In this document: in pieces, positions 57,933 to 61,431 of the stretch
Layout: each line of letters starts with the position of its first letter
Position numbering within the stretch: position 1 is the first letter of the stretch
Source: a virus
Virus record (IMG/VR): IMGVR_UViG_3300009149_006183
Location: 28,304 to 92,303 of that record
Strand: one strand, 5' to 3'
Length of the DNA: 64,000 bases
Program-made: the position numbers and the translations under genes
Notes under the pieces: model-generated
The model's database searches: none
The model's input: only the letters and a program-made list of their open reading frames with translations
What the model was told of the DNA's origin: nothing

Positions 57933-58481
57933 TTATTTCTTGCCTTTTTCCTGACGGTAACTAGTTTCAGAATAGTTGGGATATCTTTTTCCGTAGATAT
58001 TCTCTCGCCAGTCGGGCGAAGTAGAGTATCTTCTAGAATAATTTATAGAAGGTATATTGGAAACAATTCTGCCTAAAGGATCTACATCTTCTACGCCAGA
58101 TTTTAACATTGGAAAAAGAATAGAAGTTGGTATTTCTTCATTCACTATCTTCGTTAATGTGTCTTGGCTCACCTCATTCAATTTAAAATATGTCTTCTTA
58201 GCATCGGAAAATTCATTTAATTCATAAGACCAGAAAACGCTCCAAGATAATCCTCCTAAGAACTCATTATTAACGACCATAGCCACAGAGTACTTTGCAA
58301 AAGTTTTAGATATAGAAACCCTTATGGAATAAGAATCCATATTATATCTCTTAACATCAAAAAGCTTAACATCGTTCGCTGTTTGATTATCAGCCTCGGC
58401 ATCGCTTTCTTGTTTTAAGAAAGAACTTGTTTGTGATGACGCTTGTTTGTGCAACTGTGATTGTTTATACCAGTTTTTCAT
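57933..58481 (-). CDS. Hypothetical protein with MKNWY leader
   Basis: Begins MKNWYKQSQLHKQAS. Confidence 0.7.
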   Translation of the reverse strand: MKNWYKQSQLHKQASSQTSSFLKQESDAEADNQTANDVKLFDVKRYNMDSYSIRVSISKTFAKYSVAMVVNNEFLGGLSWSVFWSYELNEFSDAKKTYFKLNEVSQDTLTKIVNEEIPTSILFPMLKSGVEDVDPLGRIVSNIPSINYSRRYSTSPDWRENIYGKRYPNYSETSYRQEKGKK

Positions 58482-58580
58482 GTTATACTTGATTTCTCTA
58501 TTTTTAGAAAAATCTCCTTTTTAATTTCTAAAAAAAGGATATTATTGTATTATTTTTAATGTGTTATGTGAGGAGTAGGC

Positions 58581-59507
58581 ATGAATTGGTATCATCAAGA
58601 AATTTTATATAAAGAAGCTATAAACTGGGGAGATTTCGCCAAGGGAATTTCTCCATTCGTATTGTCTGGCCTTTTATTCTTAGGCATTTCGCAAAATGAT
58701 ATAAAAAATCAATCTCCTTCTCAAATAAAGCAAACAGTGATGAATAAGGCTCAAGAGAAAGGAATTGAAGAATCTCAAATAAGATCAATAATCGAAGAAC
58801 TTGACCAAGCGATCCTCTCTCCTCAAAATACTCAACAACCAGAGGCACAACAAACTCAACCTAAAAAACAGACCTCATTTGCTCCTTTTATTCCAGCATT
58901 AACCCAAAGAGAAGGTTTTAGAACAAAAGTCTACGATGACGGGGCTGGGTATGCCACCATTGGCATAGGGCATATGATGGGAAAAATTCTAGCCAAAGAT
59001 AAAAATGGAATACCAACAAAAATCATTCCAAACGAAAGATCTGTAAAAGTTTTTAATGAACTATTCGGGAATACCTTAGATTTTAATCTTGTAGCAACAG
59101 GGAAACAAGTCTTGACAAAGGAACAGGCTCAACGATTGGCTGAAGCTGTCGATGTCCCAGAACACTATGCAAGGGCTCGAAATCTGTTCCCAAATATAGA
59201 TAATTATCCAGACTATGTTAAATACGCTCTACTCAATGGCGTTTTTAGAGGCGAGTTTAAAAAAGATTATCAAGTAACTAAGGCCATAAACGAAGGAAAT
59301 TTTAAAGATGTAACGAGATTTTATCTAATGAGAAAAGATTATAGCCAAGCCCAAAAAAATGGAAGACTCCGTGGCATTATCGCCAGGATGGATGAAAATC
59401 AATATGCTTTCCTTAAATATGCGTTAGAGCTTGGACAAATTACACAGCAAGAGTATCAGCAAAAAATGAGATTGTTAGATTTGACAGATTTGACTTTTAT
59501 GGAGTAG
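58581..59507 (+). CDS. T4-type (GH24) lysozyme-domain protein with MNWY leader
   Basis: EGFRTKVYDDGAGYATIGIGH gives the E-x8-D-x5-T catalytic triad; SD GAGGAG. Confidence 0.8.
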   Translation: MNWYHQEILYKEAINWGDFAKGISPFVLSGLLFLGISQNDIKNQSPSQIKQTVMNKAQEKGIEESQIRSIIEELDQAILSPQNTQQPEAQQTQPKKQTSFAPFIPALTQREGFRTKVYDDGAGYATIGIGHMMGKILAKDKNGIPTKIIPNERSVKVFNELFGNTLDFNLVATGKQVLTKEQAQRLAEAVDVPEHYARARNLFPNIDNYPDYVKYALLNGVFRGEFKKDYQVTKAINEGNFKDVTRFYLMRKDYSQAQKNGRLRGIIARMDENQYAFLKYALELGQITQQEYQQKMRLLDLTDLTFME

Positions 59508-59508
59508 A

Positions 59509-60138
59509 TCACATCTCTCCATAAAGTTTATGAAACTCATCCCTTGTTATCGGCTTCGAAGAGATATGTTTTAAATACTTAAAATATTTTTGCGGCACAA
59601 AAATTTGATCTCCCCATGCCCAAAACCCTAAATTCTTAGGCATCCCATTTTTATCCTCTTCCATATGCCCGAAAAACCACTCATTTATCTCGTCAGATGC
59701 CCATTTTGGAAATTCAAATCTATTTATATATAACATCTTGTAGGGTTGTCTTGATTTTATATATTCTGGTTTTTCTGCGATTTCTCGCATTTTATCTATT
59801 TTGCTCATTATGCTAATATACTCTGGATCATTCTCTATATTTCCTTGTCTAATACCCTTCTCATATTCGTCTTCTATTTTATCTTCTAATTTAAAAAGTT
59901 TTTTTCTGTTGATAGAAGTGTCATCTTCGGTCTTTTTGTTAAATACATAAAACGCCCAATCCTTAATCAAACTACTAAAAGTAGGAGAAAAATATAAGCC
60001 AGAAACTCCGCTAAAAGAAGATGTAGCAGAAGGCATAGAGATTTTGTCCGGAGAGATATGCCACAGGGGAATTAAGACTTTTCTATTGCTGCCATAGTCT
60101 TTCCAATGTTTTTTGAGATTTTTATTATACCATCCCAT
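59509..60138 (-). CDS. Hypothetical protein with MGWY leader, possible ADP-ribosyltransferase-like fold
   Basis: LWHIS...GLYFSP...LY...DQIFVP pattern. Confidence 0.5.
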   Translation of the reverse strand: MGWYNKNLKKHWKDYGSNRKVLIPLWHISPDKISMPSATSSFSGVSGLYFSPTFSSLIKDWAFYVFNKKTEDDTSINRKKLFKLEDKIEDEYEKGIRQGNIENDPEYISIMSKIDKMREIAEKPEYIKSRQPYKMLYINRFEFPKWASDEINEWFFGHMEEDKNGMPKNLGFWAWGDQIFVPQKYFKYLKHISSKPITRDEFHKLYGEM

Positions 60139-60186
60139 AATATAATTAATTATATCATTATAAATAAAGTCCTTTTAAAACATAAA

Positions 60187-60789
60187 TTAATCTTTTTCTA
60201 TATTAATTTTGAGCATTTTTTCTTTACATAATTTTTTGGCTTTTTTCCAACCATATCTTAATTCTAAAAATCTATAAAGAAGACATTTTTTTATATGTTT
60301 TTGACGCTTTTTAGTATCAGTTATAAGATAATAATCCCCAAAAATCGAATCTTCTTGTCCTCGATGGCGTTTAAGAGAATCAAAAAAGATATTACCTCCA
60401 TCATCACAATATGATAAAAATAAATTTATTAAATTTCTATAATCTGTTCTTATCATTATAACCACAGAATTCTCGCTAAAATAGTTTTGTTTAATTGCTA
60501 AAATAGTTCCAAGCGGTTTGCCTTCAGCATCTGTTTCTTTTATATATATCCCCCCGCCTATATTATAAAAAATCATATATTCATGAAATATTTTTATATT
60601 GTTTTCAACGACAGATTTAATAATATCCGTAGATGATCGACAATCCAAATTAGTTCTATATCTTATATAAACATATTGGTGCTCTAAGCATGTTGGATGT
60701 TTCGCGTCTAGACTAGGTATAGAATCGCAATTATATTTTTCTTTACAGTTCATGCATTGATTAAAAAAATGACAACTTGGCTTTTCCAT
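60187..60789 (-). CDS. Hypothetical protein with N-terminal Cys cluster
   Basis: 200 aa; C-x5-CxxC-x5-C near the start. Confidence 0.6.
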   Translation of the reverse strand: MEKPSCHFFNQCMNCKEKYNCDSIPSLDAKHPTCLEHQYVYIRYRTNLDCRSSTDIIKSVVENNIKIFHEYMIFYNIGGGIYIKETDAEGKPLGTILAIKQNYFSENSVVIMIRTDYRNLINLFLSYCDDGGNIFFDSLKRHRGQEDSIFGDYYLITDTKKRQKHIKKCLLYRFLELRYGWKKAKKLCKEKMLKINIEKD

Positions 60790-60906
60790 ATTATCTTCCT
60801 TATTATTTTTCCATACTATATTCTCGGCAAAAAAATAATAGTTAAATATACTTTGTGAAAGGGTTTTCTTTAAAATTACAATAAAATATATAAAAGGATA
60901 AAATAT

Positions 60907-61431
60907 ATGAATTGGTATAAAACTTCAAGCGAAAAGAAATTAATCGTGATGCGCGGGATTTCCGGAAGCGGAAAAAGTACGTTAGCTCAGGAATTAGGTC
61001 AAGGAGGCGTTGTGCTGTCCACAGACGACTTTTTTACTACTCCAGAGGGAGAATACCAATTTAATGTACGAAAGCTCGGAGAAGCCCATAAATGGAACCA
61101 AAATAGAGCAGAACAAGCGATGATAAAAGGAATCTCTCCCATTGTAATTGATAATACTAATGTGAAAGTATACGAGAGCCGTTTTTACGTCATGGCTGCA
61201 CAAAAACATGGTTATAATGTAGAAATAGCCGAACCTAACTGGAGCCCAGAATTAAGAACTCCAGAAGGTAAATGGAATATAGATTTTATTAATGAACTAC
61301 AAAAAAGACGTAATATAAATAACAAAACTAAAGTCATTCCACAAGATGTTGTTAAAAGAATGGTAGATCAATATGACTATGATATAACAGTCGATGATAT
61401 TCTAAAATCAAAAGCCCCCTGGGAAAAATAA
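60907..61431 (+). CDS. P-loop kinase (AAA_33, NEDD4-BP2/polynucleotide kinase-like) with MNWY leader
   Basis: MRGISGSGKST, STDDFF, AHKWNQ, IVIDNTN. Confidence 0.85.
   Translation: MNWYKTSSEKKLIVMRGISGSGKSTLAQELGQGGVVLSTDDFFTTPEGEYQFNVRKLGEAHKWNQNRAEQAMIKGISPIVIDNTNVKVYESRFYVMAAQKHGYNVEIAEPNWSPELRTPEGKWNIDFINELQKRRNINNKTKVIPQDVVKRMVDQYDYDITVDDILKSKAPWEK

Follow-up and report, generated by a model that had tools for sequence, protein, structure and literature searches.

The capsid and scaffold proteins of the staphylococcal phage 80alpha have N-termini that copy the host L27 leader and are cut by the protease Prp. In phage T4, the internal proteins IPI, IPII and IPIII carry a capsid targeting sequence (CTS; MKTYQEFIAE) that sends them to the scaffolding core and that the prohead protease gp21 then cuts off. 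The internal proteins of T-even phages are diverse defence proteins in which only the CTS is conserved (PMC3012670). The heads of phiKZ, 201phi2-1 and SPN3US are described as enclosing many proteins, processed at a short consensus by one prohead protease (PMC7411985, PMC10052503), and in the literature searched we found no description for these phages of a portable N-terminal leader common to unrelated enzymes. We analysed a stretch of 64,000 nucleotides, hereafter the window (positions 28,304 to 92,303 of IMG/VR virus record IMGVR_UViG_3300009149_006183), which is part of a 92.3-kb contig and contains four neighbouring genes, A to D (Table 1), that start with variants of one short peptide, M-N-W-[YF]. 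This leader is a real and portable tag, constrained at the peptide level, virus-only and specific to a clade of huge phages. We give an even chance to the idea that an N-terminal address tag, used throughout the clade, loads accessory enzymes into the prohead for delivery and that the four leaders are local copies of it, degenerate in part.

A preliminary description, made from the DNA letters alone, had reported four genes with a common start between positions 57933 and 61431. The four open reading frames (ORFs) are indeed present, with the N-termini MKNWYKQSQ (A), MNWYHQEILYKEA (B), MGWYNKNLKK (C) and MNWYKTSSEKK (D). When the pattern ^M.{0,2}W[YF] was searched across the contig, it was found at the start of 4 of the 86 ORFs, all inside 3.5 kb, as compared with an expectation of 0.12 for ORFs of at least 50 amino acids (maximum of 2 in 200 dinucleotide shuffles); ATGNNNTGGTAT occurred 4 times against 0.64 expected. 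With their first 10 residues removed, the four proteins gave no pairwise BLASTP match below E=0.3, meaning that the bodies are unrelated, as had been claimed, and B and D are, again as first noted, the only credible plus-strand genes in the window. These two fit M-N-W-[YF] exactly, and A (MKNWYK) and C (MGWYN) each differ from it by one residue, their homologues in relatives starting with MNWY, MSWY or MPNWY. Since the CheckV completeness of the record is 16%, the count of four tags holds for a fragment and not for a genome. The contig is collinear, in reverse, with about 108-247 kb of G001, a complete 461-kb phage with terminal repeats. The window is thus a fragment of a huge phage, and the contig is part of the same tag system as this relative; it also has the flank genes p112 and p131 and Volactin in common with other tag users.

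Homologues of A and C led to viral contigs with many more unrelated ORFs starting with MNWY or MNWF, and a degenerate DNA scan with MNW[YF]KQ[AST]Q pointed to six viral contigs of 43-488 kb. In the loci examined, at least 84 distinct ORFs are tagged, with the consensus M-N-W-[YF]-[KR]-x-[AS]-Q. The same leader heads dozens of unrelated ORFs, far more than the preliminary description had seen. The tagged genes are often arranged in tandem arrays, one locus (L022) having 17 of them in 8 kb. Counted over whole records, the numbers of ATGAAYTGGTWY and of a reversed-pattern control were 14 and 0 in G001, 14 and 0 in G003, 22 and 0 in G005, 4 and 0 in G004, and 7 and 2 in G002; in G001 about 21 of the 686 ORFs are tagged. 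The leaders are short and the four in the window are degenerate in their second half, as could be expected if they arose by chance or were functionless remnants of shared ancestry, or of recombination at the starts of genes. Such an origin is barely conceivable given the excess over 0.12 expected ORFs, the 14-22 matches against 0 in three relatives, and the maintenance of the tag on unrelated bodies across genomes of 28-45% GC and homologues only 43-60% identical.

We then considered whether the DNA or the peptide is conserved. Inside the tag, Asn is encoded by AAT 40 times and by AAC 27 times, and Tyr, Phe, Lys, Arg and Ala each use several codons; the codons thus vary synonymously, so that the constraint acts on the peptide. 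Were the common start a feature of the nucleic acid or of translation (such as an extended -10-like TGGTATAA, an element of the start region tied to the phage IF3, or a nascent-peptide 'ramp' that raises expression), this would fit with W-Y-K being encoded by TGGTATAA in three of the four genes, with the phage-encoded IF3 and with a mild bias of the tag codons towards A-ending ones. We regard this explanation as very improbable, since Tyr/Phe and Lys/Arg swaps keep the chemistry and not the sequence, conservation reaches residue 8, the DNA upstream of the tag genes is not conserved, and a promoter within the first codons would cut off the start codon. As for TGGTATAA being an extended -10 promoter, it is present 7 times in the window against 3.7 expected, so it is not enriched, and this candidate was rejected, being also contradicted by the Tyr-to-Phe tags and the synonymous variation. 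The AAAGG motif that had been attributed to each of the four genes does lie upstream of all of them (and of 19 of the 86 ORFs overall), but a copy at ribosome-binding distance was found only at D; in three of the four genes it stands 37-49 nucleotides upstream (-37 to -49), and it is not enriched before the tag genes of G001. We thus rejected it as a common ribosome-binding site.

The tag is also a viral feature. In 596 Gb of prokaryote genomes, MNWYK[KQ]AQ gave 3 stretches, which is about the chance level, and the one convincing stretch, comprising four tandem tags, is carried by a small, AT-rich, phage-like contig of a metagenome-assembled genome, in all likelihood a piece of phage DNA that was binned with it. 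The idea that the tag mimics a host N-terminus was therefore rejected. As in 80alpha, unrelated phage proteins have a short N-terminal leader in common, removal by a single protease being a feature of 80alpha. The leader of 80alpha is copied from the host and cut by a host protease, whereas the prokaryote genomes scanned are essentially devoid of the MNWYK tag.

The leader behaves as an add-on in the two families in which homologues were compared. It is found at the start of 61 of the 120 best homologues of the kinase D, with the consensus MNWYKKAQ, and 16 of the 20 best homologues of the lysozyme B are tagged and show the order tag, hydrophobic segment, lysozyme. Among the kinases, the distance from the tag to the P-loop or to the first strand varies, and untagged homologues start directly at the strand or bear a different leader. 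In D itself, the leader MNWYKTSSEK covers residues 1-10 and the first beta-strand begins at residue 11; in the AlphaFold2 (AF2) model (pLDDT 93.5), residues 1-10 are coil with a pLDDT of 66, so that the tag is predicted to be an unstructured appendage outside the folded kinase domain. Taken together, the many unrelated ORFs, the add-on behaviour in two families, the position outside the kinase fold and the constraint on the peptide strongly support the earlier proposal of a portable tag on unrelated enzymes.

Other conserved leaders occupy the same position, namely MxFxxWLEN on kinases (P0094, P0095, P0112) and MKLxxLYE on lysozymes (P0256, P0267), the latter being the start of the untagged lysozyme homologues. 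These leaders hint at lineage-specific alternative tags; MxFxxWLEN was not found on unrelated ORFs in the loci examined. A second N-terminal leader, M[KR]x[IF][KR]T..[YW], heads five neighbouring ORFs of G005 (46250-52095) that have nothing in common past residue 12, as well as several ORFs of G001 (62986, 111625, 181907) and a 70-amino-acid ORF of the window (MKVIKTATY, Table 1). It resembles MA[IF]YKTAT, the start of the protease-scaffold described below.

Which proteins are tagged? Among 60 of them we found Tad6 (4.5e-35), Acb1, 2H phosphoesterases, GNATs, methyltransferases, HTH proteins, DnaJ and a nucleotidase, and this repertoire is a counter-defence and host-takeover set. Like the T4 CTS, the MNWY tag is a portable peptide of about 8-10 residues, situated at the extreme N-terminus of unrelated, fast-evolving accessory or counter-defence proteins, and its end resembles a motif that marks head proteins. 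It differs from the CTS in that it has no sequence similarity to MKTYQEFIAE, in that the presumed cut motif is an optional K-x-A-Q instead of Leu/Ile-x-Glu, and in that dozens of genes per genome are tagged, including those of Acb1, Tad6, kinases and methyltransferases. Also unlike T4, no S77 protease (PF03420) was detected in five relatives, in a search whose positive control gave no signal anywhere either; an S78 protease was not found in the relatives. The phages studied here are unrelated to phiKZ, 201phi2-1 and SPN3US, and are uncultivated.

We next looked at the second half of the tag, K-x-A-Q, elsewhere in the proteomes, leaving out the first 12 residues of each protein of G001. This phage has 28 K-x-A-Q sites in about 142,000 amino acids, 12 of which are in adjacent ORFs at 64.9-79.9 kb (3.5% of the proteome). 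This region contains the portal (phrog_16240, 1e-49) and a 1834-amino-acid protein whose N-terminal head-maturation-protease domain was assigned by a single match (phrog_18299, 3.4e-8), and the major head protein (phrog_2522, 3e-63) is encoded just downstream, at 80.6-81.5 kb. Composition-preserving shuffles within each protein gave 1.1 expected sites in this block, and none of 2000 shuffles reached 12. When 5,340 patterns of like form were ranked by head-block enrichment, K-x-A-Q came third, with K-x-A-S and K-x-A-E close behind. The enrichment was found again in another genome, G005, whose capsid protein and portal are 84% and 67% identical to those of G001: of its 16 sites, 12 belong to the head block, for which K-x-A-Q is the most enriched of 1,609 patterns. 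Several sites hold the same position in both phages, and the protease-scaffold itself starts with MA[IF]YKTAT, resembling the tag. K-x-A-Q thus marks the head block of the relatives, and its pattern is the one that would be expected, by analogy with T4, if one prohead protease cut both the head proteins and the tags after K-x-A-Q.

The preliminary description had further proposed that the leader loads diverse enzymes into the head for injection. This proposal receives indirect support from the head-block signature in two relatives and from the T4-like cargo list. A subclade of huge phages would attach the MNWY tag to many unrelated accessory enzymes, and some component of the core of the assembling prohead, for which the giant protease-scaffold is the best candidate, would recognise the free N-terminal peptide. 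This recognition would result in the enclosure of the tagged proteins in the head; tags ending in K-x-A-Q would be removed by the prohead protease, as would be the case for the same motif in head proteins, and the cargo would be delivered with the DNA into the next host. Kinase D would then be a pre-made RNA-repair or counter-defence enzyme, lysozyme B with its hydrophobic segment an ejected wall-digesting protein, and A and C further head cargo. We infer prohead binding, cleavage, packaging and ejection from the T4 analogy (PMC3012670), the cargo repertoire and the head-block motif, and consider this capsid-cargo reading the best available mechanism, evenly poised between being right and being wrong. 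An extended form, which we put forward tentatively and at somewhat less than an even chance, is that of a modular address code, in which the main tag MNW[YF]K and the leader M[KR]x[IF][KR]T..Y would load dozens of interchangeable counter-defence and RNA-repair enzymes in the head, the prohead protease would clip at K-x-A-Q, and the cargo would arrive ready-made with the DNA.

Several observations weigh against head loading. The tags fit the cut-site-like motif unevenly: [KR]-x-A-Q follows W[YF] directly in only 15 of 84 tags (18%), and it is present in 25 of 61 tagged kinases and in none of 25 tagged lysozymes. Even the relaxed [KR]-x-[AS]-Q fits only 23 of the 84 tags, indicating that the second half is optional, so the link with the head rests on an optional part of the tag, and no partner was found for the invariant MNW[YF] half. 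In the window, only A retains the relaxed form (K-Q-S-Q); B, C and D do not fit, B having YKEA further in. The contig fragment has no recognisable capsid, portal, scaffold or terminase gene (HK97 capsid, PF05065; gp23 capsid, PF07068; and Terminase_6C were not found on it), and synteny with G001 places the expected head block some 30 kb past its right end. Three of the 10 K-x-A-Q sites of the contig are in a 947-amino-acid neighbour of the four genes (p=0.004 uncorrected), which is not significant over 86 ORFs; this protein was rejected as a K-x-A-Q-rich head protein, its sites being kept only in part in its counterparts and no homology to a 785-amino-acid protein of G001 being found. Some tagged proteins, such as the HTH regulators and DnaJ, are not obvious ejected cargo, and B, with its membrane-like segment, may insert in the membrane instead of being packaged. 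Finally, the one megaphage in culture, phage G, makes no use of the tag, its 2 matches being at chance level.

Alternatively, the tag could sort or dock proteins not to the prohead but to some other partner encoded by the phage, for example at a site of replication or assembly, a chaperone or a processing enzyme; K-x-A-Q would then reflect a protease in common with head proteins, or a coincidence. A tag that is virus-only and clade-specific should have a phage-encoded partner, its invariant half is unlinked to head genes, K-x-A-Q is missing from most tags, and some of the tagged proteins (regulators, a membrane-anchored lysozyme) would do their work in the cell that makes them. We nevertheless judge this explanation rather unlikely. 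No candidate partner was found: the Volactin-bearing GenBank huge phages LR756511 and LR745208 are not tag users (1 and 0 matches), ClpP is absent from G001 and G002, and the S24 peptidase adjoining D does not travel with the tag genes. It also leaves unexplained why the second half of the tag is a top head-block motif in two genomes.

We also considered that the leader could be an N-terminal degron or a removable propeptide, timing the life or the activation of potentially toxic enzymes (kinase, lysozyme) by means of a Clp-type or other protease and involving no packaging. The N-terminal ClpX recognition motif is polar-hydrophobic-hydrophobic-basic, which N-W-Y-K loosely resembles, and the contig encodes a ClpP-family protease and a 556-amino-acid AAA+ protein. 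Their features make this explanation improbable. The ClpP clade is devoid of the axial loop for unfoldase docking, none of 120 ClpP homologues is tagged, and neither of the complete tag users G001 and G002 has the gene; since, moreover, its MSWK start is not conserved, ClpP was rejected both as the protease of the tag and as a tagged protease. The AAA+ protein, which has no aromatic pore loop and no clear IGF loop, was likewise rejected as an unfoldase partner. A degron for a host protease, for its part, need not be clade-specific.

The lysozyme B is built of MNWYHQEI, then LYKEA (residues 9-13), which forms a second tag-like piece, a hydrophobic segment, a Gln/Pro-rich linker and the lysozyme domain from about residue 109. 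The segment, residues 19-37, is weakly hydrophobic (Kyte-Doolittle value of 1.55). Signal-anchor-release (SAR) or membrane-tethered endolysins are marked by a weakly hydrophobic, Gly/Ser-rich segment at the N-terminus, ahead of a lysozyme domain. B, which may be of this kind, has a hydrophobic segment and a PF00959 match, but about 18 residues of conserved, predicted cytoplasmic tag come first, and neither a holin nor a lysis cassette was found near the gene.

Gene A had no Pfam, PHROG or Atlas match; its tagged homologues start with MSWYKQAQQ (L002), MNWFKEHV (L003) and MNWYQRK (G001). In the small family of gene C, [NG]WY is kept in 7 of 8 members. C had been described as resembling ADP-ribosyltransferases (ARTs). 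There is a weak Atlas lead to Arr-type transferases, and the family conserves an H-x-S and G-x-Y-F-S pattern, but no match was found in Pfam or PHROGs and no informative one in Foldseek or VIA-align. Fold-search matches of its AF2 model (pLDDT 73.8) were confined to a helical hairpin, and the family has no conserved catalytic Glu (the ART triad is H-Y-E or R-S-E). An ART fold is no more than possible for C.

Our literature search turned up no paper on the motif, or on a tag of this kind in huge phages. What the analysis adds is a fragment whose degenerate tags head genes in both orientations, another genome for the head-motif test, a comparison within two protein families showing the leader to be an add-on, the elimination of a partner of the Clp type, and another class of leader. 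Should the tag prove to load proteins into the head, well-defined capsid-targeting peptides would number only two, the first being that of T4; this one would have a far larger cargo list and would come from uncultivated megaphages. A simple sequence rule would then name an injected 'first-strike' arsenal, including known anti-CBASS and anti-Thoeris proteins; many further tagged proteins would be worth testing as counter-defence factors, and a short tag for packaging foreign proteins in large capsids would be at hand. Even with another destination, a label of eight residues that only viruses use, and that more than 80 unrelated proteins carry, would point to a step of sorting or processing in huge-phage infection that has yet to be described.

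Table 1. Features of the window and its contig (positions of the window unless indicated otherwise).
Feature	Position	Strand	Length	Description
Gene A	57933..58481	-	182 aa	Leader MKNWYKQSQ, then low-complexity Ser/Gln-rich linker
Gene B	58581..59507	+	308 aa	PF00959 Phage_lysozyme (9.1e-6); phrog_7 endolysin
Gene C	59509..60138	-	209 aa	Leader MGWYNKNLKKHWKDY
Gene D	60907..61431	+	174 aa	AAA_33/polynucleotide-kinase-like P-loop kinase; PF13671 (5.6e-16); phrog_2071, phrog_505
Mini-ORF	61433..61465	+	ten codons	MAWYSLNKLF and stop; two bases past the stop of D
Inverted repeat	~58500-58535			TTTAGAAA ... TTTCTAAA, flanking AAAAAGGAG
S24 peptidase domain	61471-61764	-	97 aa	Stand-alone, LexA/UmuD-type; adjoins D
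DnaB-like helicase	1005-3833	-		Interrupted by LAGLIDADG intein
IF3	6315-6818	-		Both domains present
ResIII/SNF2-type helicase	8718-11474	-		Interrupted by LAGLIDADG intein
ORF with second leader	11474-11686	-	70 aa	MKVIKTATY
Volactin-family actin-like protein	50658-51734	-		PF25216 (2.3e-58)
Neighbour with K-x-A-Q sites	52542-55385		947 aa	
PhoH	55414-57120	-	568 aa	About twice the usual length
Small ORF	61739-62173	-		Signal-peptide/lipoprotein-like N-terminus
Small ORF	62985-63419	-		Signal-peptide/lipoprotein-like N-terminus, with ...LIVGC
ClpP-family protease	23020-23667 of the genome (L026:9020-9667), outside the window	-		PF00574 (5.6e-44)

Looking at the DNA around the four genes, the inverted repeat sits in the 99-bp intergenic region between the divergent genes A and B and may be an operator or promoter element. 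The mini-ORF behind D may be the remnant of a fifth tagged gene, or chance; when ORFs of every length are counted, chance should give about 3.3 motif matches on the contig, so that the mini-ORF alone is not significant. The S24 peptidase domain was rejected as a part of the system since it has no counterpart near the tag genes of relatives. In G001, the tagged HTH proteins at 100217-101041 and 101697-102353 have identical 30-nucleotide upstream sequences.

Apart from these genes, the contig encodes a Volactin-family actin, IF3, a Dam-type methylase, the intein-bearing helicases, PhoH, a tail-tube protein and very large structural ORFs. A comparison of its DNA with GenBank phages gave no similarity, and its rightmost gene has no relatives in the viral collection searched. 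The ClpP gene is squeezed in between two genes that encode separate pieces of a DNA polymerase, and its product is without the canonical N-terminal axial loop; an identical ClpP is encoded on a 109-kb contig. IF3 is kept in G001. The Volactin-family protein has counterparts of 52-67% identity in 12 viral contigs; in two GenBank huge phages, neither of them a tag user, the identity is 29%. The two small ORFs with signal-peptide-like or lipoprotein-like N-termini are located near the right end of the contig, and the PhoH ORF contains a putative intein-like insertion after the P-loop.

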